A DNA stretch of 64,000 nt from an uncultured candidate division Zixibacteria bacterium. GTDB taxonomy: Bacteria; Zixibacteria; MSB-5A5; GN15; FEB-12. Shown here one piece after another: positions 44,565 through 64,000 of this stretch; positions within the stretch are counted from its first letter, which is position 1, and every line of letters begins with the position of its first letter. The notes beneath the pieces were generated by a model. That model was not told the DNA's origin. It made no database searches and worked only from the letters and a program-made list of their open reading frames with translations. The position numbers were made by a program, and so were the translations under genes. The stretch lies in assembly GCA_963806185.1 (NCBI GenBank), contig CAWDXE010000001.1, positions 832,001-896,000 of the forward strand. The letters are read 5' to 3'.

Positions 44565-46383
44565 TCACAGTCCGGAAATACGCATGCTCGACGGGAAACT
44601 GACCTGGATGGGAACTGAAAGGGAGTCAGTTTGCCCGGGAGCGAGGGTAATCGTCCAGACCGCCCGACCCTGGTAGTCGATTTGCGGCTTGGGGATATTG
44701 TCGGAGTCGAGGCGGACCTTGATGCGATCGTCCTGAGACAATGACAACGGCTCTTCAAGCTGGATGGTGCTGGTGAAATTGGAGTGGTTTTTCAATGTGA
44801 ATCGCACCATCTGGTCGACTTTGGTTTCGCTCTTCTCGCGATCGCGGGTAACGTTGGTCTGCTTGCGTTCTACCGAGACGCGATTCTCGCGACCGAAGGG
44901 CAGTTCAAATTCGGCATTCTGCGGAATGAGGCGAATCAAGCTGCTGGCGCCGATATATTCGGTTCCGGTGAAGAGGGCGACGGGGCCGGAAAGCAGCGGC
45001 ACAACTGCCTGATTGGTGAGCGTAACAACGCGGTACGCACCTTCGAGCGCACGCGGTCGGGCGAGGATTTTGGTTTTGGCCTCAAGTTGCCAGTCGCCGA
45101 TGATGGTGCGTACCGGTTCCTGGCCGGATTTCACCGTTTCAGGGCGACGGGCTTTGAAGGTAACCGGCACGCCGGGAAGCAAACCAGGAGAATGTGCCCG
45201 AAACAAGCGCGAGATTCTCGCCGGCACGACCGACACCGCCGAGGGGATCGCCGATGGGGACGCCCTCAACCGTGTATGACATTTCGCCAGAGTTGCCGCC
45301 CCTGATGAAGACGCGGTCAGTTGATGTCGTCTGCACGCCTCCTACACTCTTGAGCATTTCGTCTACCGACTGGGCCGGGCGACGTTTGATGGATTCCTGC
45401 GCAATGGAAACTTGATTGGTGGTCGCAAATTTGTCGATGATGTCGCGTGTGCCGATTACGGTGATAGTTTTGCCAATGTCATTCGCCGGTTCGATGATCT
45501 TGAGCGAATAGGGTCGGTATTCTCCGGGGCCGACATTGCTGTTGGGGTTGGAGGTCGACAACACTAATTCAACGCTGTCCCACTGTTCGCCGGTCGATTG
45601 GCTGATGAGCGCGAAAGCTGTCATTTCGACGAGCTTTCCATCGGGAGATAGACGAGCGTCGTACGCCGGAGTCCAGGAGGCGCCGGCAATCATGTAGGAA
45701 ACGAGCACGGTGCAAGTTGAGGGAGCTTTTGCCTGCAGGTCGACGAAGATCGACCGGCCGACGTGGCGAATTTCATCGTATGCACGCGAAATCTGGCCGT
45801 CGCAAGCGGAAATCCGCTGGCCCAGATCACCCAGAGCGCGGTCTGATTCACGCAGCGAGTCGCCGACCTCGATCATGCGTTGGCCGACAAACCGAAAGGC
45901 GCCTTCCCACTGCGCGACGTTGAGCGCCCCTTCAGACATCTGTTGTCCAACAGCTTGTTGGGAGACTCCCTGAAATGAGGCTAACAATTCTTTTTGTGCC
46001 TGGAATGCGGCGCGATGGTCATTGATGAGATTGCGCTGCCTGATCAAGCTGTCGCGCAGTTTCGCGGCACCGCTGACGTCGCGACTAACCCGCTCGACGT
46101 AGTCCTTGGCCTCCTGCCGGAAGTTCACCATCGTGACACCGTTGTCACCCGGCACTTCGACACGGTAACTGCCGGGATCACTGTTTGTCGGCAGATTTTC
46201 GACAAGGACAGTCTGATTACCCGGCTGCAGATTCACCACCGCGGCTCGCACGACGCGAGCCATGTCCGCATACACGGTGACTTGTTTGATGGGAGCCCGG
46301 ACTGTTTGCTGGGCGGCCTGGATTCCGGACAACGGCGCGACCGCAATCAAGGCACCCACTACCCACCGATAATCGATACGCAT
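44565..46383 (-). CDS. DUF4140/DUF4139 (MuiA-like) secreted protein with an internal TonB-receptor plug-like domain; apparent frameshift (~45200)
   Basis: VTVY...ARV.R, coiled coil, ASWTPAYDARL and Q.TGE.W..V.L.LST; plug-like GVQT....FIRGG......VEGVPI; C-terminal LLSGPV.LF and FELPFG. Confidence 0.75.
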
Positions 46384-46557
46384 ATAACACCCTCCCGTGG
46401 TCGTCTGACCACACTGTGCGTTTTGGCGCGTATCTCTGGCACGTCGGCGCCATGTAGTGCGTGGGGAGTCTATGGATATGACGGCGGGGTGGTGCAGATT
46501 GTGCAAGGTGAGGTGAGGTGAGGTGAGGCGATGGCGTATGATTGGGCACTGGACACT

Positions 46558-48521: not shown

Positions 48522-50201
48522 TTAGGTCGTCGCGGTTTGCTTGCCTCCCCCCTTCCTCATCACCATCACCAACGCCCTAATCGCCAGGAACAGCGCCAGT
48601 GAAATCAGTAATGCGGCGGCGATACCGTTGATGATCGAGCCGGCAGTCGGTGTGCCGGTGGTCAGATCGGCGAGGCCAAGTTGAGTCAGCGACCAGAGAG
48701 TGATCGTCAGCACGAAAATCATCGGCAGCAACGTAAAGGCGATGCGCTGGCGCGCCTGATAGAGCCACATCGTGATGGCCAGCAGAGTCAACGCGGCCAG
48801 CAATTGATTGGCGGCGCCAAACAGTGTCCAGAAAAGACGCCAGCCGTTTTGATCTGATGTCAGGACGAAGAAGACCGGCAGCGCGATGGTCGCCAGCGTG
48901 CTGAGCCATCCCCATCCGATCCCCGGCTTGCCGATAAATTCCTGAATGATGTACCGTCCGAGACGCGCACAAACGTCGAGGGTGTCAAAGACGAAGGTCG
49001 AAAAGGCCATCGCGCCAAAGGTGATGGCGAACGGCAGGTTCTGTTCCCCAATGATCAACGTCAGAAAATGACCGATGCCGTTGCCATAGATGGTGGCCGG
49101 GTTCATCCCCTTCTGCTGATCGGGCGACAAGATCATGATCGTAACAAGGGCGATGAAAGCGACAAAACCCTCGGCCAGCATGGCGCCGTAGCCGACCTTG
49201 TGAATGTGCGATTCCTTTTCGATCTGCTTGGACGTCGTGCCGGAGCAGACCAGGCCATGGAAGCCGCTGCAGGCGCCGCAGGCGATCGTTACGAACAAGA
49301 ACGGGAAGAGACTGCCGGTCTTGCCGCCGATACTCCACGAGGTGAACATGGTCTGTTTGATTTCGTAGCCACCGGCGAAGATGCCGATGACGCCCAGTCC
49401 CAGCGCCAAAAAGAGAATGAAGCCGCCGAGATAGCCGCGCGGCTGAAGGATCAGCCAGGCCGGTGCGACGGAGGCGAGCGAGCAGTAGATCAGGATCAGC
49501 AGGCCCCACACGCGTATATCCATGATGAACGAATTGGCGATCAGGGTGCCGAGCCAGACGACACCCAGTGTCGCCGGGACGAAGATGATGGTGAGCAACC
49601 AGAGTGGCGGTTTGAGAAATCGCTGGACCAAACCCATGATCATCGAGAGCGCCAGATACATCGTGCCGGCTGCGGCGACGGCGCCACCGGGATGGAATTT
49701 GGTGACAATGCCCTGAAGTTCTTCAGGCGCGGTGACAAAACTGGCGGCGGTGATCTGCGTGAAGGCGACGATGACGTATATAAGGGTGATCCAGATGAAG
49801 AGCATCATGGCGGTGCCCGCTTTGTACCCCATGTGCTGGCGGACGATGTCGGCGATCGAGCGAGCGCCGTGCCGCACGGACGCGGTGAGGCTCGAGAAGT
49901 CGTGCACGGCGCCAATGAGGACGACACCAAAGCCGATCCAGAGCAGGCAGGGGAGCCAGCCGAAACTCTGACAGGCGAGGATGGGGCCGGCGATCGGGCC
50001 AGCGGCGGCGATGGCGGAGAAGTGCTGGGGAAAGAGGTAGTACCATTTGACCGGGACGAAGTCGAGGCCGTCGTTGATTGTGGTGGCGGGGGTCGGTTTG
50101 GAATCATCGAGCTTGAATTGGCGGGCGACCCAGCCGCCGTAGAGACGGTAAGCGAGCGCGAGGACGCCGAGAAAGAGAATGGCCAGAAGCGGTAGGCTCA
50201 T
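48522..50201 (-). CDS. cstA: Carbon starvation protein A family transporter
   Basis: HFSAIAAAGPIAGP, GAVHDF, LQPRGYL, FVTIACGACSGFHGL and FGAANQLLA. Confidence 0.92.
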   Translation of the reverse strand: MSLPLLAILFLGVLALAYRLYGGWVARQFKLDDSKPTPATTINDGLDFVPVKWYYLFPQHFSAIAAAGPIAGPILACQSFGWLPCLLWIGFGVVLIGAVHDFSSLTASVRHGARSIADIVRQHMGYKAGTAMMLFIWITLIYVIVAFTQITAASFVTAPEELQGIVTKFHPGGAVAAAGTMYLALSMIMGLVQRFLKPPLWLLTIIFVPATLGVVWLGTLIANSFIMDIRVWGLLILIYCSLASVAPAWLILQPRGYLGGFILFLALGLGVIGIFAGGYEIKQTMFTSWSIGGKTGSLFPFLFVTIACGACSGFHGLVCSGTTSKQIEKESHIHKVGYGAMLAEGFVAFIALVTIMILSPDQQKGMNPATIYGNGIGHFLTLIIGEQNLPFAITFGAMAFSTFVFDTLDVCARLGRYIIQEFIGKPGIGWGWLSTLATIALPVFFVLTSDQNGWRLFWTLFGAANQLLAALTLLAITMWLYQARQRIAFTLLPMIFVLTITLWSLTQLGLADLTTGTPTAGSIINGIAAALLISLALFLAIRALVMVMRKGGGKQTATT

Positions 50202-50323
50202 TTCCAACCTTCATCGAGAAAAGTTCAATGACAAGCTGATATAAAGTATGAGTTGCCGCGAGATGCGCAACAACAATCGCGACGCAAAATTCCGCGGATG
50301 CGGCGTGATGCGAGGGGAAATAC

Positions 50324-50399: not shown

Positions 50400-51371
50400 T
50401 CAGATGGTGTTGTCCTTTTTCATGCGGCTGATCGCCAAATGTCCGGGTGTCGTTTCCACCGCTTTGACCTCGACGATCTCGCAGACGAAGAAGTCTTCCA
50501 GCGTGATTGTCTCGCCGCTGTAGCCAAGCAGTTCTGCATCAATGGCGACCGTGCCGGTATCGGTGCGGTTGAAGAAGGTGATGATGCGGTTGGCGTAATC
50601 AAGGCTGCCGATCATCCCCTTGAATTCCACTTCGGGAGTGGCAGCCTCGTTTTCATGATCGTTGTTTTCAACTTTCACGACGGCCGCGTAGATGGTGGTA
50701 GTGTTGACGGCAGTGCCCTCGACTTCAACCGTGTCGCCGACTTTCAAATCGGCAAAGGCGATCTGCTGTTTGCCTTCCAGGTCATCATTCCCCTGAGAGA
50801 GCGTGGTGCTCGCTTGTGAACGGCTGACATGGGCATAGAAGCGGGAGAGTGAGTCGGTGGTGATGGTCTCGGTGCGGGTGTCGACGGTGAAAGTGCCGGC
50901 GACAAAATCGATGCCATTGATTATGGCTTTGAATTCGACCTCATTTTCCGGACCGTGTTCCGCTTCGTTATGTACGCGTACACGGACGCGGTTGGCGAGC
51001 AGGCCGCTGCCGGCAAGGTCGCCGCGAACCTCGACCGAATCACCGGCGGCGATTTGATCGAGGGTGATGGGGGTTTCGTCACCGCTGTTCTTGAGCACGA
51101 CTTCGGCGTCGGCCGCAACCATAATCAGGACGGTGGAACCGACGAAGGTCATGGTGCGAGCTGCGGCTTCGAGTGTCTCCACCCGGCCGGCCAGTTCGTT
51201 GCTGGAAGCAGGAGAACCAGGGGAAGCAGGGCCGCCCGCTGTGAGGTTGCTGCTTTGTGCCGTCGCCTGCGAGCCGAGGGGATTATGCGTAGAATCAGAG
51301 CATCCGATCGCCAGCAAGCTGACGATTGAGATAGCCGCGGCGGCGGTCGTAAAGCGTAGTGCCCGTGTCAT
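50400..51371 (-). CDS. Lipoprotein with three DUF5666-like OB-fold repeats
   Basis: Lipobox AIGC; repeated G.I..ID...TF / L.VGD.VEV.G and EVEFKG motifs; RBS AGGAGG. Confidence 0.72.
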   Translation of the reverse strand: MTRALRFTTAAAAISIVSLLAIGCSDSTHNPLGSQATAQSSNLTAGGPASPGSPASSNELAGRVETLEAAARTMTFVGSTVLIMVAADAEVVLKNSGDETPITLDQIAAGDSVEVRGDLAGSGLLANRVRVRVHNEAEHGPENEVEFKAIINGIDFVAGTFTVDTRTETITTDSLSRFYAHVSRSQASTTLSQGNDDLEGKQQIAFADLKVGDTVEVEGTAVNTTTIYAAVVKVENNDHENEAATPEVEFKGMIGSLDYANRIITFFNRTDTGTVAIDAELLGYSGETITLEDFFVCEIVEVKAVETTPGHLAISRMKKDNTI

Positions 51372-51497
51372 GTGTGTCCTCCTGAGACTGGTGAGCGTTG
51401 TAGTCAATTCTCGTGTTGTCTACTACCAAGAGCCACGGAGTCGATGATTCGTGCAGGAAACCGACGGGAATTTCATGAGCAGAGGTCGGGATCCCCA

Positions 51498-51975
51498 CCA
51501 GCCCTCACCCCAGCCCTCCCGGAGCAAGAGGGGCTGCCGAGATATGCTAATACGGATGGAATCCGCCTACGATGTCATCGCGAGGCGCGTTGCGCGCCGT
51601 GGCGATCTTTCAGTCTTCCTTCACTCTTCCTAGTTGTCGGGCTTCTTGATCAATTGGAAAAGGAAGCCTGACCTACGAAGAAATGCGCCCCCACCAGCCC
51701 TCACCCCAACCCTCCCTAAAGGGAGAGGGAGAGAGAAGATAGCGTCAGGCCACACGCCGCTAAGAAGCGGCGCACGACCTGACGCAACGAACATGGGATG
51801 CACATCCCATGGATTCCGGACCGCTGGTCCGGAATGACAATGATGCAAAGGTTCTTCACTCTGAGATTCTGGACCAAGGGTCCAGAATGACAATGTAAGA
51901 AGCATGTTTTGGGTTGGCTCGCGCACGAGACGTGCGCCGGACAGAGAACCGGCCGGGTGGGTCCCGGCCGGTTCA
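51498..51975. repeat. Intergenic REP island ending in a terminator-like hairpin
   Basis: CCCTCACCCC..CCCTCCC elements at ~51498 and ~51695; GTC hairpins at 51574, 51806 and 51865; GTAG-type hairpins at ~51636 and ~51743; GAACCGGCCGGG..CCCGGCCGGTTC at ~51946. Confidence 0.88.
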
Positions 51976-51999: not shown

Positions 52000-53388
52000 T
52001 TAGTTCGTGCAATCGAGTGGCGCGAAGGTGACAAAGAGCTGATTGACCATGGCGGTGATGTCACCAATATCGATACCGGCCTGACCGTCAATGTCAGCCA
52101 TATCCGGATTCGGCAGAGGAAGAATCGAAATATACAGATGATCGACCAGAGCAGTGAGATCACCCATATCCGGGCCGGCACCGTCCTGATCGACGTCGCC
52201 ACAAATGATCCCCGCCTGCGACAATGCGGCCGCGACATTCACGACACCCGAGCCAAGTTTACCGGCATACAGCGGGTTCAGGCTGTCGACATTGACGGCG
52301 CTCAGCGTGATAGCGTCGAAAAGATCATTCCAGGTGATTTCCGGCTTTCGCGAAATAATCAGAGCTGCCTCGCCACTTACAAAGGGAGCGGCAAAGCTGG
52401 AGCCGTTCCACCAGGCGTAAGTCGAATCGAGAAACGGACCGTAGACGCTGGTACCGGGGGCGCAGACATCGAGCTTCTGATGATAGGTGGCGAAGGTGGA
52501 TTTGTGATCGGTTGAATCAACCGAGACAACGCCCAGCACATAGGAGTCAGTGGCGGGGAAGCGGTCGAGTTCAATGCCATCATTGCCGCCTGAAGCAATC
52601 ACCAGAACATTCTGATTGCGAGCGTATTCGATAGCGGCATCGACGGTGCCGTGTTTGTCACCCATGACCAGGCTGAGATTGATGACGCGGCAACTGTCGG
52701 CGACAGCCTGAAGAATGGCCTCGGCCACGGCGTATCCATTGCCGGTACCGGCGGTGTCAAGCACGCGATAGGCGTGGATTTCCGCCTGCGGAGCGACGAG
52801 ATGGATGATGCCGGCGACAAAGGTACCGTGGCCGCTGGCCCGACCGCCGGCCGTATCAGTTGGCGTCATGTCGCCGTCGACATAATCCTGCCCGGCGACG
52901 ATGGTACCCGAGAGAACGGGATGAGTGGGGTCGACACCGACATCGATGACAGCCACTCTAACATGGGCACCAGTCGAGACCTGTTGCGCCGGAGCCAGGG
53001 CAAGTTGAGTGGTTGCAGGCTGCTGGACGAAATCGGAGTTGGTGCCGTTGAGATCGATAAACGGCTGACTACCCTGCACCGGTTCGGGTGCGTCGGCAAG
53101 ATAATTCGGCGTGCAATAGATGATATTCGCATCACTGGTGATGAGTGTGGCGAGGCTATCAACATTGATACCCGGCTGTGTTTGCAGGAGATAGCCGTAA
53201 ATCTGCGGCAGATAGGAGACGGTGGTCGTGTGATAGATTGAGTTCACCTGATCGATGTATTGCGAGTCGGTCACGGCGCAAATGAGCTGATCTGGAACAA
53301 ACGCACCGGAGTCTTTGGCGTCGGCAGAGAGCGTCGCGACCATCAATACAAAGGCGAGTGTCATCGTATTTCTAAGGTGGCGCATCAT
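52000..53388 (-). CDS. Secreted S8 subtilase with a C-terminal dockerin-like pair
   Basis: Signal peptide; VAVIDVG, GHGTFVAG and GSSFAAPFVSG; CGDVDQDG..DMGDLTALVDHLY / ADIDG...IDIGDITAMVNQLF. Confidence 0.92.
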   Translation of the reverse strand: MMRHLRNTMTLAFVLMVATLSADAKDSGAFVPDQLICAVTDSQYIDQVNSIYHTTTVSYLPQIYGYLLQTQPGINVDSLATLITSDANIIYCTPNYLADAPEPVQGSQPFIDLNGTNSDFVQQPATTQLALAPAQQVSTGAHVRVAVIDVGVDPTHPVLSGTIVAGQDYVDGDMTPTDTAGGRASGHGTFVAGIIHLVAPQAEIHAYRVLDTAGTGNGYAVAEAILQAVADSCRVINLSLVMGDKHGTVDAAIEYARNQNVLVIASGGNDGIELDRFPATDSYVLGVVSVDSTDHKSTFATYHQKLDVCAPGTSVYGPFLDSTYAWWNGSSFAAPFVSGEAALIISRKPEITWNDLFDAITLSAVNVDSLNPLYAGKLGSGVVNVAAALSQAGIICGDVDQDGAGPDMGDLTALVDHLYISILPLPNPDMADIDGQAGIDIGDITAMVNQLFVTFAPLDCTN

Positions 53389-53395
53389 GTACCTC

Positions 53396-56123
53396 TTATA
53401 CCCCCGCCCCAAAGACCGAAAACGGCGCCCAATGGTAGGCGGATCGAAACTGCTGGGCGGCGGCCAGTGAAGCCTGTCGGGCTGATTCTATAACGGTGAG
53501 ATCGGTATGTAAGTTCGAATAGAAGAGACCCATCCAGAAAGCGGTCGAGGCGTCGGCGACCGGCCAGTGGCCGGCGACGACAGTTCGGGTTCCCATCTCG
53601 AGCAGGGAACGAACGAGGCCGGTGGACTCCTCACCGGGGAGGGCGACGTGGGCACCGGTCTGGCAAGCGGCCAGGGTGGCGAGATTCACGCGGGCGCGGC
53701 GAAGACGAAAGTCGGCGGCGAATAAGGGTCCATCGATCATATTCAGAGACGAATAGAACGGGTTCTCCCGATTCAGTTGCGCGTGACCAGCGAAATGCCA
53801 GAGTTGGTAGTCACCGTCCGAAGGCCAGAGACTGCGCGTACAGGGGTCGTGGATGACCACGTCGCCCGTGAGCGATGATCTCAGGGTATCGAGTTCTTTG
53901 CGAACATTGGGGAGGTCGTCGGCCTGACCAACGAAGATTTCGCTGCGCCGGGAGTCGATTCGCAAGGCGCGAGCGTACAGGTAGTGGCGGAGACTGGGAG
54001 CGTGAACCATGCTGAACTCGCGGGCGAGAGGTTGTCCGTTGCGGCGAAGGGCCTGCCAGGGAAGATTGGCGAGCGGACCCTCGATGAGAAGAAGCAGATC
54101 GCGCTGAGCGGAGTCAATTTCGAGCGGCGCCCAGAGCCAGTCCCCGGTGTGGTCGAAGAACTTCTTTTCGTCATCGACATCGTGGCCCGACGGAAGGTGA
54201 GCCGCAAGGGCGGCGGATTCGAGAAGAAAACCCCAGTGGGCGGCGGCGCGATCAGCGAGTTCGCTGCCATAGGCATAACGATGGCTGCGCGTTGTGCCGT
54301 CTTGATGGACGAAAGCGACGAGTTCGGACGATGAGTGATGAATTTGTATGACCGTGCGGTCGCGCGAGACTTCGGCAAATTGCGCCGTGAGTCGCTGATT
54401 GGCAATGTTGTCACCGGGCCGGAAATCTTCAATGGCAAGCAGTTCCTGGCGAATTGATTTCTGAAGTTCAAGGATGCGAGCGCTGCCTGCTCTGGCCGCA
54501 ACCGATCGTTCGCCGCCAAGGCCGACCTGCCCAGAGAGAGCGGCTACCTGATTGGCGAGCGCCATGAGCGATTCTTCCACTTTGCGGCGGGCAGGTTCGG
54601 TTTCGAGATTGGCAACCATCGGTCGCCATAAGCCGGCGGTGCGCATCCGTTCCGACCAGACCGCGGCTTCGGTGGGATTCGACTGCAGGTGGGCGTCGAT
54701 CAAGCGGTGGTGCGGGCTTTCGAGCGACAATCCGTAGCGGGTACGCAGACCGACGGGAGGCAGTTGAGCGCGCACCTGATCGAGACGATCGGCGGCCTGT
54801 TCCCATAGTTTGACCGCGCGGTCGCGCTCGCCGCGGGAGGCGGCAAGATCACCGGCGCGGGTGTGCCAGCCGGCGAAAAGATGCGGGACTTCTTGCGCGG
54901 CAGTGTTATGACTGAGTCGATCCAAGGCGCGGTCGGACAGGGGTGCGTCAAATGATGCGTACAAATCGCAGACGGCCTGCCAGAGGGGGAGCTGTGCCTT
55001 GGCGAAATAATCGATCGCCTTGCGCAGTTGACTGCGCCGGAGTACCGGGATCGCGCGTGATTTGGGATTTGAGAAGATACACGGCCCCACAAAAGCCGAA
55101 GTTTTTTTCCGCCACGAAGGCGACGCGAGCACGTTCGAGAGCGGAGGACGCTTCGCGGTGTTTCCCTAGTTGACTGGCTGCCGAAGCGCGATAGTAGGCG
55201 GCCTTGGCTGATTCATAGCGGAGATTCAGTTTGCGGAAGAGTAGCTCGGCCTCTTCCCCGGCGTCGCGGGCGTCGGCAAAAAGATTAAGATTGAGAAAAA
55301 CCTCGGCGCGATCGACCACACATGACGCAACGCGCAACGGGACGCCGATGCGACGGTAGGCGGTTTCACAGTCGGCCAGTTCCTGCAGGGCGACATGAAA
55401 TTTGCCTTCGAGCATGTGGAGCCACGAGAGTCCCCAGCGGGCATCCACGGCGTCGAGTTCGTGACCGTGAGCAGTGTAAATTGTTGCCGATCGTTCGTAG
55501 AGCTGTTCCGCCTCGCGCATGTCGAAGAGCTGCACAAGGGTGTTGCCGCGATTGAAAAGCAACGTGCGGCCGCGAGTTCATCGCCGATGGAAAGAAAGAT
55601 ATTCCCCTGCTGCCTTGTAGAGCTGTTCGGCCTCGCGGTGACGGTCCTGGCGGTGGAGGAGGTTGGCGAAATTGACCTGCGTCTTGGCGACCTCGCTTTG
55701 GTTTTCCAGAGCGGAGAACGTCTTGAGCGCCAGGCGGGCACGGCGTCGTGATTCGGCAAAGTCACCGAGGTACATGTAGACGTCGACAAGCGTGCGGTCA
55801 ATGCGCCCGACAGCAATGCGGTCGGTTTTCGACAAACGGCGTGCTTCCTGGTAGGCTTCTTCGGCCTCGACATAACGCGAACTCATATGGGCGGCACGGG
55901 CCAGCGCACGGTAGGCGGCAAGCGAGACGACGCTGTCACCGGCGCGCGAGCGCTTCACCAGTTTTCGGGCGAACGTCAGCGCTTCGGCGAGCGAGTGCTG
56001 GACTTTGGCGACAATCGCCTGATTGATAGCGTCGGCCAATTCCGCCGGAGAAACCAGAGCGACGGTTCCGCGGGAGAGGAATTCGAGCAGCGCTTTTGAT
56101 TTTATATCTTCGGAGCGTTCCAT
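53396..56123 (-). CDS. TPR-repeat plus CHAT (caspase-like) protease; two apparent frameshifts (~55570, ~55050)
   Basis: TPR-like helices in ORFs 55578-56123 and 54948-55562; CHAT motifs L.NLPW.AL, HFAGH, LAACQTG, W.VAD and YHWAPF. Confidence 0.88.
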
Positions 56124-56686
56124 TTTACGGACGGCAATTCGATCGCCGCTGCGGGCGAGCGAAGGATCAATTTGGACGGGGGCGTTTTGGCGATCCAGGT
56201 GAAGAAACCGCTCTGGTCGGCGCGGACAGTCAACCGTCCGGCGGCCAGTTGCCAGTCGGCAAGCGAGTCGGTTTGCGGAACAGCAAGCTGGGCACTAAAG
56301 CGCCAACCGTCGGTCACGCGAGTAGCCTGCAGATCGAAGCGGATGCCATCGGCGCTAAACTGCAGCCGTCGCTTGTCGGCGTCGGCGCCACGTACACCCA
56401 GCGCCACGGACGCGGTCCATGAGTCGAACGAAAGATTGGCGACCAGCCTGCGAACCAGACGACTGACTTTGCCCTCAGCAAGAGCGGCGGCGCGATTGAT
56501 CCATTCGCTCGGCGCGCTTGCAAGCTGAGGTGATCCGGCCAGCGGAAATGCCTGGAACAGAGCGAAATCCTGACGGCATTCCGGGCATTGCGCCAGGTGA
56601 GCGGAGAAAGTGATCTTCCCGGACATCGCCGCTTTGATCATCGCTTGTCTGGTCGGGTGGTTGGTCATCTGAGGCTGCGCTTTCAT
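56102..56686 (-). CDS. Putative soluble zinc-binding anti-sigma factor
   Basis: HLAQCPEC (HxxxCxxC, ZAS motif) near the N-terminus; start overlaps the sigma stop (TAATG); no obvious TM helix. Confidence 0.7.
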   Translation of the reverse strand: MKAQPQMTNHPTRQAMIKAAMSGKITFSAHLAQCPECRQDFALFQAFPLAGSPQLASAPSEWINRAAALAEGKVSRLVRRLVANLSFDSWTASVALGVRGADADKRRLQFSADGIRFDLQATRVTDGWRFSAQLAVPQTDSLADWQLAAGRLTVRADQSGFFTWIAKTPPSKLILRSPAAAIELPSVKWNAPKI

Positions 56687-57292
56687 TATCGTTTTTTACT
56701 ACCTGATAGAGGAGCGGACCCGCCAATTCGTGCATCCTCAAAACCGGATTGCTCCAGCGCCTTCTTAAGACGGTCCAGGCAGCGGCGCCGGGCCGGTCCC
56801 AGGGCGTTGCTGGAGATACCAAACTGAACAGCGAGGTCGTCGTAGGACGTGTCTTCGTCGGCAAAGAACATGGCCTGCAACAGCTTGGCGCACCGCGTGT
56901 CAATCCGGGCCAGCGCGTTTTGCATGGTCGATTGAAGTTGGAGTTGTTCCAGTTCCTGATCCGGGAGTGGGTCGGCGCTTTCGATGGAGTGAGCTTCCTC
57001 GATATCGGTATGGCGACGGTCGCGGCGAAGGACTTTGATTGCTTCGCGGCGCGCAGTGGTGGCCAGCCAGCCGGGAAGGCGGGAGGAATCTTTGATCTTC
57101 GTTCGGTGAGAGTGAAGGAGCACCCAGGTCTGCTGGAAACAATCGGCGGCTTCGTGGTAGGAGAGGCCGACGCGGGTAATGACGGAATAGACAAGTGCTT
57201 CATACCGCCGGATCAAGTTCTTTCCAGGCGGTGGGATTGCCATCGACAACGGCAATCCAGAGATCGGGGTCTGTCATTCCTTGGGTGGTCAT
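56686..57292 (-). CDS. ECF-type RNA polymerase sigma factor; apparent frameshift near 57213
   Basis: MTDPDL......GNPTAWKEL continues in another frame as IRRYEALVYSV; AADCFQQTW, GWLATTARREA and region 4 SYDDLA...G.....LGPARRRCLDRL. Confidence 0.88.
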
Positions 57293-57419: not shown

Positions 57420-60400
57420 TTACTTGGTACCCCTCTTTTTGGCGGGGGCCTGGTGGAAGAGCATGTTCGCCGGGAGGGGCTGTTTGGGGAGGCCGGGGCC
57501 GCCGATGGTGACCGCCAAGCCGCCATCCCCCTCGTGCTGGAACATGCGCACACTTATAGGGTGGATGCCGGCCTTGAGGACGACAACTCCCGGGACTTCA
57601 CCCATGCCGTGCAGACCGTCGCTGTTGATGACGATTGAGTCGGAGACCACCAGCATGCTGCCGTCGTCGGAGCTGAGCGTGAACTCGTAGGTGCCGTCGG
57701 ACGGGATCTGGATGTAGCCGTTGAAAGTCAGGCCGTAATTCTCTTCGCGCGCGTAGACAACGGGATGGAGACATCGGATGAGATCGTGTCCTTGAGCGGC
57801 TTGAGGCCGCTGAAGTCGGGGAGTTTCTCCCAGGCAGATTCGAAGTATTGGCAGAGCAGGCCGGGGACGAGTTTGTCGACTGTGCGGGCTTTGCGCGGCG
57901 AGAGTTTGGTGACGTAGAGTTCGTTCACATAATGATCGTCGGTGCCCGGCTTGATGGCGCGCGCCTTGAGCAGGCTGGAGCCGGTGACGGTGATTGGCTC
58001 CTTATAGACGGCAGATTGCGCATCCGGTGTCTTGCCGTCCAGCGTGTAATGAACAACAGCGCCGGGTGTGGGTGTGCTAAGGGTGTATTGCGCTCGGCCG
58101 GCGAAGCCGACGCTGTCGGCGGTGATGGTGGCAAGGGTGCCGTCAGCGACGTCGTAGAGCGGCTGAGTCGGACGGACCGGATCATCGTTGAAGTTGGTCG
58201 CGGTGACGGCGACGATGCGCAGCCGGTCGTTGTCGGGAAGGGTGATCGTCTTCGTGCCGGCGGGGAGATCAAACGAGACGAGATAGAGATAGGTGAAGTG
58301 GTACGCTTCATTCGAGTCGGCGGCCGTGTGACGATGCGACGCATACCAGGCGACCGGATCGCGATGAATGTAGGCGGGGGCGATCTGCTCGGGTTCATCA
58401 GCAAAGCGGCCGCTGGCGACGCGGCTGTTCCACTGGCCGAGCGGTGAACTCCAATCGAGAATCCAGCGAGTTTGCTTCACAGTGCCAATGGTGAAGGTCC
58501 CTTCGGCGGGGCCGTCGACAGCGGCGGCGAGGAAATGCACTTTGTTGAACTTGCCGTCGGGAAGGGTGATGGTCTGGCCCTTGCAGACGACGACATTTTG
58601 GGCACCATCGGCATGCGGGCCGGTGACGAACGGAATGCGGAGGTGTTCGAATTTGGACAGGAGCATCTCCCCAGCCAGCGAGTTGCCGTGAGTGTCGAAG
58701 TTGCCGTCTTTCTTATTCGCATCGCTCGACATGCCGTCAAGGTTGTACGGAAGATCGAGGGTGCGGGAGAATTGGGCATCGTCGACGTAGTTTTTGGGGA
58801 GTTTGCGGACAACGTCGAAGGCGAAGGCGCGGGGCTGGTAGGGGGCCAGATTTGCCAAGACGGCATCCCTTCTGATCGGCACGTCAGCCATCTTCGATTC
58901 AGCACCATTGACTTCAGTAGCGCCTTTGAGCGGTGACGCCAAATCTATGGCACAAACGAGAGGACGATCATCGATATTGCGAACGCGTACAATCACCTCA
59001 TCGTCGTCTTCAGCAAGCTTCACAGCGCACACAAAAGGATCTGGCCCACCATCATTATCACGTAAGTCCTTCACCTTCATAAACGATCCCGATTTGTCGT
59101 CATCACCTAGAGCGAGGACCGATGGAGTTTCAACCAACGAGTATATTTTTCCCAGATAGCCCTTATGTGCCGGTGATTGAAACGCAAGTAAGGGTTGGTT
59201 AAGTCGGGCGGCACCGTTCACCACGCTCGGGTAAATATTCCACCAGCGACCGGACCTGACAACATTCGGTTTCCAACTCTGATCCGTGTGTCCGTGCACG
59301 GCAAACGCAAATTCGTGATGGCCGTTGTCCTGCGACCGTTCGTCCTCCACCCAGTTCCATTTTTCATTCACGCCGGGGGTGTGGATGAGCGTCAGGCGCA
59401 GGGTGTTCTTGTCCGGGTGATCCCAACCGTACTTGCAGTCGGAAAAGACGGCAGTGCCCATGTCGGCCCACTGATGGCCGGGGACTTCGTACAGCTTGTC
59501 ATAATTGACGCCGCGCTTGATGGCGCCGAGACCCAGATCGTAGGTGACACTGTCGCTGGCTTGTGCAAACGTGAAGGCGGCCTTGAGGAGCGTTTCGCGT
59601 TCGTACCAATCGACCGAGTTGTCGAATTTGATTCGATCGCCGCCGTCACCGGCAGCCAGACTGATACAGGTGGTGAAACTGGATTTCTCCGTATGACGGG
59701 TGACCATGAGCATGACGCGCACGGGGCCGTTTTCGACAATCTTGATTTCGGGCGTGCCGCCGACGATGGCGCGCGGTGCGGCCATGATATCATCGTACCA
59801 GATTTCCCACGCCGGCCAGGCTTTGGGTTTGTCGGTGAGCAGTTGAAATTCGATCGGTTTGGAGAGGAGTTCTTTCTTCTGCGATTTGTCATAGATGGAG
59901 GCAACGTCGCCGTTGGCGTTGAGCTGGACTTTGTAGCGTTCGTTCTCCAGTGAATTGTTGGTCACGGCAAGTGTCGGCTTGATAGCGCTCGGTTTTGTCG
60001 CGGGCTGGATGTCGTACACGGCATAGCCGACTGATGGTGCGTTGGCCAAGAAGAGGATCGCGAGGCTGTCGGGCCAGGCGGCGACGATCTGCGACGGCAC
60101 TTCTTTCTTATCGGGACCGACCACGCGGATGAATTTGGGCGCAGGACCGTTGAAGTACACGGTGGCGTCGACAACGTCCTGACGTTCGATACCGAGCGGG
60201 TTATAGACGACCAGCGGCACACCCTTGGCGCGCGTATCCAGATACGGCGTAGTAGCGGCAACGGCCTTGGTCAGAATCTGACTGAAGCGGTTCTGGCAGA
60301 GAATCTCGTCTGCCCACGAGAAGACGTACGCTTCGGGAATGCTGGTGCCGGTGAGGTCGTCGTGAAATTGATGCCAGAGGAACCGGGTCCAGGTGTCGCG

Positions 60401-61458
60401 CAGTTCTTCGCGCGGGTACGGCTGATTGGCGACGAGCCAGGCGATGACCGAGGCGCGCTCGGCCGCGTCGGCGAGAAGTTCATTCTTCCGGTTCCATCGT
60501 TTCATGGCGGCTTGCGAGGTATAGCAGCCGGTACCGTGACGGGTCATGACCAGTTCGCCACGGTAGTGCGGGAGCTTGGAGGTGTCGCCGTCTTTGACGA
60601 GATCGACCAGATCGTCGGCGCCGACACTCAGCACTTTGATGTCGCCGTCGCCTTTCATCGATTGCTCGAGCCAGGCGACGGATTCAGAGTCGGGCGAGCC
60701 GCCGGTGTCGCCGGTGCCGAAATACATGTAGGCGAGCGGAAGGCCGGAGGTGTCGGCCTGCTTCTGAATGTCTTTCGTCCAGATGGTGTCCTTGCGCAGA
60801 TCGCCGCGAATCTGCGAGCCGTAGCTGCGCGCATTGAGACCGGCGATGATCGAGGAACCATCAACACCTGTCCAGACGCCGATATTAAACGGCAGGCCGT
60901 GCGCCGAGCCCCAGCTCAGTTTCTGCGTGGAGAAGCTTTCCAGGCCGCAGTGCGCGGGCGATCGACGGCAGGGCGTAGCCGAAGCCGAAGCAGTCGGGGA
61001 GAAAGATGTCGCGGCTGGTTTTGCCGAATTCGCGCTTCCAGTAGCCGTTGCCGTAAAGGGTGTTCCGCACGAGTGACTCGAACGAGGGCATGTTGACATC
61101 GACCGCGTCGACCCAACTGCCGGTCACCCGCCAGCGGCCGTCGGCGATGTACTGTTTGCAGGCGTTCATATTCGGCCGGATAGTATTCCTTCAGAATTTG
61201 ATAGCGAAACGCGCCTTCGAAGCTGAAGACATAATTGGGGAACTGCGTGAACAGTTTTTCATTTTCGCGGAAGGTGAGGGGTATGTATTCGTTGATGCTG
61301 GTCTGGATAGTCCAGCGCCATTGGGTGTCGAGATGGGCGGTGCCGACGACCGCCAGTTTCTTCTGTTTGACGCCCGTGCCCTGGGCGGTCTCTTCAGCCG
61401 ATCCAATGCTGGTGGTCAAGCAGCACAGCAGAACGATGCCAATCCATACCCTTCGCAT
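57420..61458 (-). CDS. Secreted GH38 alpha-mannosidase with FN3-associated and PA14 C-terminal domains; apparent frameshifts
   Basis: AHLDTQWRW, nucleophile motif LPDCFG, GDTGG and QFHDDL.GTS; VHYTLDG..P; PA14-like SSDDGSML..DGLHG. Confidence 0.9.
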
Positions 61459-61475
61459 ATCTTTTCCTCTATATC

Positions 61476-62852
61476 TCATGTTGCAGATTGTACCTGTTGA
61501 ACGGGTGGGTCGGGTTTCTTTTCGGTCTGTTTGCTTCGGGCAAAGCCGCGCTGTTTGAGGCGATCGAGCAGGACGGCGCCGAGAATCACCAGACCCAGAA
61601 CCACTTTTTGCGTATAGCTTTCGACATTCGTCAAGTTCATGCCGTTTTGAATGACGGCGATGATGAGGGCGCCGATCAACGTGCCGAGAATGCGCCCCTC
61701 GCCACCACTCAGACTGGTGCCGCCAACAACAACGGCGGCGATTACATATAGTTCGTACGAGAGACCGTAGGTTGGCGCGCCGCTTTTCAGTTGTGACGCC
61801 ATCACCACGCCGCCAAGTCCGGCAAGAAGACCGCACAACGAATAAACAAAGAAAAGGACGCGGTTGACATGAATGCCGGCGAGCCGCGCCGCCTCAGGAT
61901 TGCCGCCGACAGCGTAGATGTAGCGACCGAGCGTAGTGCGGGTCATCAGAATGTGTGCGGCGGCGTATAGCACGACCATCAGAATGACGGCAATCGGTAT
62001 GCCAAGGAGCGGATCGACGCCCCGGCCGAGCCAGATGAAGCCGGAGGGGAGCTGGTAGATTGGTTTACCTTCGGAGATGATATACCCGACACCCGCGGCG
62101 ACCTGCATCATGGCAAGCGTGGCAATAAACGGCGGAATGCGGAAGCCGGTGATCATAAAGCCGCTGAACGCCCCCACTGCTCCGCAGACCAGTATGCCGC
62201 CCACACAGGAGAGAAGGACGACAGAAGTTGAAGCGCCCTCGCCGCCGAATTGCCCGACCAGCCAGGCGACAACCACAGCCGCGAGCGCGATCAAGCTTCC
62301 GACCGATAGATCAATGCCGGCGGTGATGATGACCATGGTCATGCCGATAGCGATGATGGCGATGACGGTGATCTGGTTGGCGACGTTGCGGATATTATCG
62401 GCCAGCAGGAAGGTGGGCCAGTTGTACGACGGTGGCGTTGTTACGGTCGCCGAGGCGAGGTGCGGAACACTTGCAATGATCGACCGGACCACCGGCGAAG
62501 CCGAGGTGCTGACGAAGAGGTGACATGGCTCGGTTGAATCGGCCGAGCTCAAGAGCTGTTGGCGGATTGATTCCGGGTCGCCGTAGATTGTCACACCCAC
62601 ACGACCGGCGGCGGAAAGCGCGGACAGGAGTGAGTCGCCGAATTCGCGATCGGTAGCGTTGTTCTGACCAATGATAATGATCTGTGTGGAAGTCGGCGTG
62701 GCTGCGAGATCGCTGAGCAGAAGGCGGGCGGCGGCTTTGCCGGTGGGATGCTGTTCGGACATGGTGAGAATGGAAAAGAGCACACACAGCAAGACGAGAA
62801 TGCCGAGCATCCCGTAATTGCTGATGAACCGTCCGATCTTGTTTGTCGCCAT
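61476..62852 (-). CDS. Monosaccharide ABC transporter permease (RbsC-like) with an inserted soluble domain
   Basis: GIDLSVGS, IPPFIATL, GRYIYAVGGN.EAARLAGI and IAAVVVGGTSLSGG. Confidence 0.9.
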   Translation of the reverse strand: MATNKIGRFISNYGMLGILVLLCVLFSILTMSEQHPTGKAAARLLLSDLAATPTSTQIIIIGQNNATDREFGDSLLSALSAAGRVGVTIYGDPESIRQQLLSSADSTEPCHLFVSTSASPVVRSIIASVPHLASATVTTPPSYNWPTFLLADNIRNVANQITVIAIIAIGMTMVIITAGIDLSVGSLIALAAVVVAWLVGQFGGEGASTSVVLLSCVGGILVCGAVGAFSGFMITGFRIPPFIATLAMMQVAAGVGYIISEGKPIYQLPSGFIWLGRGVDPLLGIPIAVILMVVLYAAAHILMTRTTLGRYIYAVGGNPEAARLAGIHVNRVLFFVYSLCGLLAGLGGVVMASQLKSGAPTYGLSYELYVIAAVVVGGTSLSGGEGRILGTLIGALIIAVIQNGMNLTNVESYTQKVVLGLVILGAVLLDRLKQRGFARSKQTEKKPDPPVQQVQSAT

Positions 62853-62869
62853 ATTTTAGATTCGCCCCG

Positions 62870-64000
62870 TTAGACGGCGAGGGCCATAACCGTTTCCTGT
62901 TTCACGTCGGGTGAATTCACGATTTCACCGCTGGTTCTCCCCTGCTTCATGACGACGATACGGTCGCACATGCCGAGCAGTTCGGGGAGTTCGGAGGAAA
63001 TCATGATGATCGCTTTCCCTTCGGCGGCCAGCTTGTTGATGAGCAGGTACATCTCGTACTTGGCGCCGACGTCGATCCCGCGCGTGGGTTCGTCGAAGAT
63101 GACTACTTTTGAATTCGTCTCCAGCCAGCGGGCGACGAGCAATTTCTGCTGGTTGCCGCCGGAAAGGCTTTCAACCAGTTGCTCCGGGCCGGACAAGCGT
63201 ACCTTGAGTTCAGTCACACGACTGGCAAAGCGGGCCTGTTCGAGACGCTGCTTGATCCAGCCGAGTCGCGACCATCCGGCAATATTGGGCAGGGAGAAGT
63301 TGTCCCGCGCGGAGGCACGCAGAATGAGGCCCTGCGCCTTGCGATCCTCGGTGAGAAGGCAGATGCCGTGCCTGATGGCGTCGCGCGGTGACTCTGATGC
63401 TGATCGACACGCCGTCGAGAACGATATTCCCCTGACGTCATCGGGTCGGCGCCGAAGATAAGGCGGGCGATTTCGGTACGTCCGGCCCCCATGAGTCCGG
63501 CCATGCCGAGCACCTCGCCGCTGTGAACAGAGAACGAAATGTCGCGCACTTGAGCGTGAAGTCAAGCCGGACACCCGCAAGCGGACCTCACCAATCTTGC
63601 AGACAGCTTTGGGAAATTCGGTATCGAGGGAACGGCCGACCATCTGCTCGATAAGTCGCGGCGCGCGTGATATCTTTGGCGGCGTGCGTGCCGATAGTGC
63701 GGCCGTCGCGCATGACGGTTATGCGGTCAGCGATGGCAAAGACCTCGTCGAGTCGGTGACTGATGAAAATGATTCCCATGCCGCGTTGGGCGAGGGCGCG
63801 CAGATTGACAAAGAGGGCGTCGACTTCCCTGGGTGCGAGCGCGGCGGTGGGTTCGTCCATCACCAGAATTTTGGCCTCGCGGGCGAGTGCACGGGCAATC
63901 TCGACCAGTTGTTGTTGGCCGACGCTTAGGTCGGAGACGAGCGCGAGCGGATCGATGGCGACATTGAGTTGGGTGAAAATTTCGCGTGTGCGTTTGATCT
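62870..64000 (-). CDS. Monosaccharide ABC transporter ATPase (RbsA-like), partial; apparent frameshifts
   Basis: [52 protein letters not shown] and SSELPEL. Confidence 0.9.

Follow-up and report, generated by a model that had tools for sequence, protein, structure and literature searches.

We argue that four genes in a 64,000-nucleotide stretch of DNA from an uncultured Zixibacteria bacterium (assembly GCA_963806185.1, contig CAWDXE010000001.1, positions 832,001 to 896,000; hereafter the window) form a cassette that probably controls a sigma factor by proteolysis. A sigma factor of the extracytoplasmic function (ECF) type is followed by a small HxxxCxxC protein (+1), a tetratricopeptide repeat (TPR)-CHAT protease and a subtilase, in that order and all on the minus strand. 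We lean towards reading this as a cytoplasmic, likely Arg-directed protease switch on the sigma that serves exported proteins. The gene set itself is not new. What is new here is a predicted Arg cut site in +1, a docking model for CHAT and +1, and a promoter predicted inside the cassette.

The switch would work as follows. The +1 protein would hold the ECF sigma through its helical N-terminal domain. A ligand of the roughly nine N-terminal TPRs would activate CHAT, and we would guess that this cue is some peptide or protein, linked to the use of external protein as food. TPR-CHAT would grip the beta-sandwich of +1 and cut after the invariant Arg99. The N-terminal piece of +1 would then be lost through further degradation, as has been proposed for Csx30 after its cut (PMC10028731), and the sigma would be free. 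It would transcribe the exported subtilase and a DUF5666 lipoprotein, and since a predicted promoter (P1) lies before +1 it would also boost the output of its own inhibitor and of the protease. By analogy, Csx29/Csx30, CalpL/CalpT and DdvA may be taken as precedents.

The +1 protein and its loop

The model of +1 has four N-terminal helices (residues 13-72) and a C-terminal beta-sandwich, and residues 89-104 form a loop between strands. Asp88, Arg99 and Arg106 never vary. Arg99 is invariant in our 42-row alignment, in 150/150 homologs and in 38/38 actinobacterial rows, and small residues follow it. Profile searches favour invariant residues, yet 37 of the 42 alignment rows were chosen by neighbourhood and not by their +1 sequence. 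The HxxxCxxC motif is at residues 30-37, inside the N-terminal helical bundle. This zinc motif is dispensable in the family, being found in 118 of the 150 homologs and absent from a second subfamily, and the loop Arg is retained even in proteins that lack it.

The maximum 19-residue hydropathy of +1 is 0.86, so there is no transmembrane stretch, and just one of 150 +1 proteins exceeds 1.6. None of 39 CHATs has a hydrophobic N-terminus. This upholds the earlier claim that +1 has no transmembrane helix and would share the cytoplasm with CHAT. The +1 protein probably binds the sigma as an anti-sigma via the helical N-terminal domain. Csx30 is not among the sequence or fold matches of +1. No longer fused form of +1 was found among 7,991 candidates, although this is weak evidence. 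The beta-sandwich was assigned to no family, and its best match (Z 7.3) is a generic Ig-like fold.

Predicted docking of TPR-CHAT on the +1 protein

CHAT has a His-Cys dyad on a caspase fold (clan CD), and both residues are invariant in 40/40 CHATs. Its catalytic activity is a prediction. The codons are at 53785 (His) and 53665 (Cys) in the window, and the subtilase keeps its triad too (Asp 52944, His 52830, Ser 52398), so the earlier description of both active sites as intact was correct. By fold, the CHAT model resembles Csx29, separase and DdvA. In clan CD enzymes with Arg specificity, an acidic residue of S1 is carried by helix alpha1 (PMC4357240). We infer that Glu742, on helix alpha1 of CHAT, may occupy the same place; 38 of 39 sequences have Glu there and one has Asp. 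The Asp of a W-x-V-x-D motif was also considered as the equivalent of the separase S1 Asp, and the alignment rules it out. A disordered loop of CHAT has an Arg in 40/40 sequences (the column is Arg in 32) and a G-x-R-like motif in nearly all homologs. This Arg, at 54506-54508 in the window and residue 538 in the related locus L034, is a candidate self-processing site.

The complex was predicted on the intact pair of L034, with CHAT 21-907 and +1 residues 74-185. It scores 0.66, and the best of three controls scores 0.00. Of the solved complexes 116 of 157 attain the score mark, and of the mismatches 2 of 215, though these counts are rough with our own alignments. At least 80% of contacts agree between runs, and the pLDDT of the partner is at least 76. 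The confident interface has two parts. One puts CHAT helices 623-657 on the +1 sheet, with the conserved Phe631 and Glu634 near Arg102. The other puts +1 residues 91-97, which include the invariant Arg, beside CHAT 737, 779-781 (with the catalytic His779) and 853-857. These contacts fall in L1/L3/L5, from which clan CD proteases build S1-S4 (PMC4357240). The loop is thereby placed on the catalytic His and the substrate strand. The original prediction suggested modelling CHAT together with the anti-sigma and named LSFDSW...LGVRG as a candidate cleavage site. The loop does hold the invariant Arg and is modelled on the CHAT active site, while cleavage there is a prediction only.

Several points weigh against our interpretation. 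The model predicts docking, not cutting. The catalytic Cys819 is outside the confident contacts, and the most confident contact pairs are in the exosite and not in the loop. Related complexes have been solved (8eey, separase-SCC1), and likeness to them may explain part of the pass. The position aligned with Asp2151, the Arg-binding residue of separase (PMC9729208), is mostly Ala here (24/40). The likeness of +1 to anti-sigmas is weak (RsiW by sequence with E 0.02, ChrR by fold with E 0.01), and 32 of the 150 homologs, like all 38 actinobacterial rows, lack the zinc motif. A cut at Arg99 would leave the whole N-terminal domain intact, so release would not be automatic. Finally, an Arg loop in an active site may also inhibit, as the gingipain prodomain does.

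The last point raises the main rival, in which +1 is mainly a CHAT inhibitor (securin-, PCi- or prodomain-like). Here the Arg loop would plug the site, and the substrate would be the sigma or another protein. A prediction of docking without cutting fits this, and the gingipain prodomain inserts its Arg into S1 (PMC4357240). PCaspase cuts its own sigma and is inhibited by PCi (bioRxiv 10.1101/2023.06.23.546230), and for ECF54 a review proposes that proteolysis controls the sigmas with no anti-sigma involved (PMC8999054). Actinobacterial +1 proteins keep the loop and have a short N-terminus without Cys, which also fits an inhibitor. However, an invariant P1 Arg followed by small residues looks like a substrate, and securin inhibits by replacing the Arg (PMC10317155). 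An inhibitor also leaves no role for a helical HxxxCxxC domain encoded directly after the sigma gene. We consider this rival unlikely, though it deserves to be taken seriously.

One can also imagine partner switching without proteolysis, where TPR-CHAT pulls +1 off the sigma and catalysis is incidental. The top-confidence contacts are indeed those that CHAT helices 623-657 make with the +1 sheet, and DdvA dyad mutants have no phenotype in the resting state (PMC11506125). However, the His and Cys are invariant in 40/40 CHATs and no phylum shows a change of the loop Arg, so we find this scenario quite improbable. A protease switch that acts at Arg99 is still the reading we prefer.

Promoter-like motifs and predicted outputs

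The family motif at the 3' end of the sigma gene has the consensus TGTACGAAA-N14-CTCTGTA and often spans the stop codon. The motif model was built on 30 sigma-end regions, and P1 is the top site of its genome scan (score 17.7). A spacer-14 site precedes DUF5666 in 13/13 regions; 12 of these are above the 95th percentile of 390 shuffles and 10 above the 99th. The window copy (P2) has the lowest score of the 13, at 9.3. Paired -35 copies within a locus agree more than shuffled pairs do (90 vs 79 of 108), in a comparison over 12 loci that are kin and not independent, with L050 dropped as a near-duplicate. These motif positions imply that the sigma likely transcribes a small regulon of +1, CHAT, subtilase and DUF5666, and not itself. 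Autoregulation from upstream was rejected, as just 1 of 30 upstream regions exceeds the 99th percentile. The transcript likely starts inside the sigma's own 3' end, so the four genes would not be a simple autoregulated operon, which corrects the original prediction.

It must be noted that the promoter seed was not blind, since it was chosen after both sets of regions had been seen. Just 3 of 12 more distant loci have the motif close to the sigma stop. There is no genome-wide motif excess either, with 16 sites scoring at least 15 against 13-23 with wrong spacers. For this reason we claim no larger regulon.

A DUF5666 gene follows the subtilase in the window and in 12 relatives' loci. It had been named a possible output, and we argue that it is a likely one because the same promoter-like motif precedes it in every region, which makes it a predicted output of the sigma. 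The subtilases also look exported: 29 of 37 have a hydrophobic N-terminus over threshold. Among relatives their length lies between about 460 and 2,200 aa, and the tails include dockerin, TSP3, beta-helix and Por-tail domains. Such variable tails fit an output slot. The window subtilase was described earlier as dockerin-tagged. This stands through its homologs, 3 of 15 scanned subtilases matching PF00404, but in the window protein the tag does not reach a Pfam match, and it is best called dockerin-like.

Further features were noticed. A site elsewhere in the same genome, at C3:137274 on the minus strand, is a third exact match to the sigma's own variant (9-base -35, CTCT, spacer 14), with about 0.1 expected by chance. 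It is upstream of an exported CxxCH-motif protein and then a lipoprotein, and is a possible extra target. A P-x-x-x-Q-x-S-x-P-F-x-D segment between prodomain and catalytic domain (window ~53060-53100) is strongly conserved in subtilases of the first subfamily, where it could serve for processing or give rise to a signal peptide. The gap between subtilase and DUF5666 (window 51493-51895) is full of REP-like direct repeats and hairpins. L049 and L050 have a second related subtilase gene past DUF5666. In the window a CstA-family peptide transporter gene is downstream of DUF5666 on the same strand (48522-50207), and it is not among the named flanking genes of the relatives.

Layout, conservation and context

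The four genes are co-oriented with tight junctions, exactly as first described. Base 56686 is common to the sigma stop and the +1 start, +1 (56686-56102) overlaps TPR-CHAT (from 56123) by 22 nt, and between the CHAT stop (53396) and the subtilase ATG (53388) there is a gap of 7 nt. Coordinates are collected in Table 1.

Table 1. Positions of the cassette, its predicted promoters and adjoining features in the window
Feature	Position	Strand	Evidence or remark
ECF sigma factor, ECF54-like	56686..57292	minus	PF04542, TIGR02937; one indel near 57215
Predicted sigma-dependent promoter P1, within the 3' end of the sigma gene, immediately ahead of +1	56705..56734	minus	motif model
+1 protein, 194 aa; likely anti-sigma, likely CHAT substrate	56102..56686	minus	model pLDDT 88.9, weak RsiW/ChrR matches
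Arg99 of +1, predicted P1 residue in exposed G-V-R-G loop	56390..56392	minus	invariance, model, complex prediction
Cytoplasmic TPR-CHAT caspase-like protease	53396..56123	minus	CHAT E 8e-35, TPRs; ~910 aa in relatives
Subtilase S8, 462 aa, likely exported output	52000..53388	minus	Peptidase_S8 E 2e-35; signal peptide, prodomain, dockerin-like tail
G+C-rich inverted repeat just past subtilase stop, possible transcript end	51946..51974	minus	by eye; terminator scan negative
Predicted sigma-dependent promoter P2, before DUF5666	51426..51455	minus	same 9-base -35 + CTCT as P1
DUF5666 lipoprotein, likely second output	50400..51371	minus	lipobox Cys24; DUF5666 match below cut-off

The cassette has four indels, one in the sigma and three in TPR-CHAT. 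The sigma is interrupted at ~57215, and its homologous N-terminus begins at 57292 in another frame. TPR-CHAT has a compensating pair at ~55595-55560, within ~35 bases, and a single one at ~55035. These are most likely read errors, because the same assembly has rpoB broken into 11 matched pieces and rpoC into 4, and genes beside the cassette are split too. A GH38 alpha-mannosidase, a sugar ABC transporter and a further exported-protein gene (window 57728-64000 and 44565-46506) are likewise split by frameshifts, which fits assembly errors. Four indels across two genes could also mean that the window copy is a decaying pseudogene cluster. The broken rpoB and rpoC, the compensating CHAT pair, the retention of every catalytic residue and both promoter-like sites, and the open CHAT frames of relatives (about 900-970 aa) all speak against decay, and we give it very little credence.

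The CHAT piece is matched in 45 of 61 related genomes. Forty regions were taken around the best and some weak CHAT matches, and 12 more around +1 matches in other families of the phylum. Order was counted over 54 CHAT frames in 51 loci, leaving out L073, which has an unrelated CHAT. Sigma, +1, CHAT and subtilase are complete and in order at 48 of these 54 CHAT genes, in loci of one phylum (probably Zixibacteria). Whether the neighbourhood is conserved was raised as a check by the original prediction, and clearly it is. Three of the six incomplete cases are at contig ends, one has a different 1,159-aa CHAT, L066 is rearranged, and in L062 the subtilase is replaced. The replacement in L062 (3078-7100) is a 1,340-aa secreted protein that, judged by eye, has FG-GAP-like repeats. 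An apparent sigma/+1 fusion in L063 turned out to be a run of N.

The +1 profile has matches in 87 of 151 genomes from the phylum and in 2,499 sequence clusters (50% identity). The named homologs of +1 are Zixibacteria. Look-alikes in Acidobacteriota and Chloroflexota (from the Atlas) are a lead only. The same genome has a second, intact cassette (L072, C7:807856-816685), with a 1,621-aa subtilase that has TSP3 repeats and ends in a Por-type tail. The promoter-like site of this cassette differs from that of the window, which suggests insulated paralogs. Two cassettes of different subfamilies also adjoin each other in L037, where they are divergent, and in L063, where they are in tandem. Two of the three sigma matches examined from a plasmid collection have no cassette.

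The closest solved folds, Csx29 and DdvA, are both defence proteins, so it is worth considering a Craspase-like anti-phage or cell-death arm in which the sigma induces defence genes. The surroundings argue against it. The flanks are housekeeping and secreted proteins. Of 105 proteins in the flanks of 22 loci PADLOC matches just 7, all of them generic (a helicase, an ABC-F protein, a sigma54 activator, a kinase and three subtilases), and there is no cas gene among the 105. Cas1 was not found in the window's genome, which is 82% complete. The predicted outputs, moreover, are exported proteins. We regard the defence scenario as very improbable, and the CRISPR-independence that was first proposed is supported.

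Comparison with known systems

Nearly all work on bacterial TPR-CHAT proteases has dealt with CRISPR or defence loci. This analysis yields a concrete predicted substrate, a single residue, a predicted docking surface and two predicted promoters. Separase has the highest TM-score to the CHAT model (0.56) and resembles the protease in its TPR-like repeats and caspase-fold domain, its exosite docking and its P1 Arg (PMC10317155). It is eukaryotic, and the cassette's CHAT does not keep the Arg-binding Asp of separase where the two align. CalpL/CalpT/CalpS and SAVED-CHAT/PCaspase/PCc-sigma/PCi (bioRxiv 10.1101/2023.06.23.546230) also co-encode a protease, a small partner and a sigma. Those systems sense cyclic oligoadenylate in CRISPR loci, whereas the cassette has no SAVED domain.

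In type III-E Craspase (PMC10028731, PMC9729208) a cytoplasmic TPR-CHAT cuts a sigma-binding protein, and Csx29 is the best structural match to our CHAT (E 2e-14). Identity to Csx29 is 12-15%, the cassette has no counterpart of Cas7-11/CRISPR, and +1 is a 190-aa protein without detected likeness to Csx30. Csx29 cuts after Met or Leu, but Arg is predicted here. DdvS/DdvA of Myxococcus xanthus (PMC11506125) combines an ECF sigma, a zinc anti-sigma domain and a TPR-CHAT in one unit. DdvA is one transmembrane protein with a periplasmic CHAT and controls a defence island, whereas inhibitor and protease are separate and soluble here. The cassette has no single chain of the DdvA type (zinc domain, transmembrane helix and TPR-CHAT), as the genes are separate.

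The genomic context of ECF54 was reportedly noted by Huang et al. in 2015. The regulation of ECF54-type sigmas has been an open question since that year, and the published guess is that there is no anti-sigma. ECF54 is defined as actinobacterial (100%). Its +1 gene is carboxypeptidase-regulatory-like, a subtilase (+2 or -1) and a TPR-CHAT are nearby, and no putative anti-sigma is described (PMC7826278). The combination of genes is therefore already catalogued. We found no tested mechanism for an ECF54-type cassette in the literature, subscription papers being outside our coverage.

The sigma, the +1 beta-sandwich protein, the TPR-CHAT (at +2 here) and the subtilase are all shared with ECF54. 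The predicted ECF54 promoter, GTATCAG (-35) / CTCC (-10) (Casas-Pastor et al. 2021, PMC7826278), is similar but not identical to GTACGAA/CTCT here. The differences are another phylum, a zinc motif in +1, a subtilase at +3, an internal promoter and the DUF5666 output. A Nonomuraea locus has the ECF54 layout (subtilase, sigma, +1, CHAT), and homologs of its +1 are in 66 of 201 actinomycete genomes, a tally that includes one unpublished genome (G199). Most actinobacterial +1 homologs examined follow a matching sigma, with CHAT or subtilase adjoining. These loci were judged ECF54 by layout and not by a group model.

The actinobacterial and Zixibacterial +1 profiles are homologous (96.8%, E 2e-10). 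All 38 actinobacterial rows, which include one duplicate and eight close Nonomuraea sequences, retain the Arg, in most cases within G-V-R-G/S, while CxxC is absent from every one. The carboxypeptidase-regulatory-like Pfam label is weak (2 of 42 members, E 0.004 or worse). Our sigma profile scores the actinobacterial cassette sigmas at E ~1e-33 to 1e-49, in a comparison that held no other ECF groups. GTATCA sites occur in 6 of 40 short actinobacterial loci, a count without a chance control.

The likeness suggests that the cassette works like ECF54. We stop short of calling it an ECF54 member, since that group is defined as confined to Actinobacteria and assigning the sigma to its clade would be conjecture. 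There is perhaps a little less than an even chance that ECF54-type cassettes across several phyla are one large CRISPR-free class of cytoplasmic switches that act in one step, in which a stand-alone, separase-like TPR-CHAT cuts a so far overlooked soluble anti-sigma after a conserved G-V-R motif and a beta-sandwich exosite gives pair specificity. If so, the missing anti-sigma of ECF54 would be named, and thousands of orphan CHAT proteases would gain a substrate and a cut site. Cultivable organisms with cassette homologs exist, because homologs are found in actinomycete genomes and in so many clusters. The class would also be a non-defence form from which the Craspase- and DdvA-type arms could derive.

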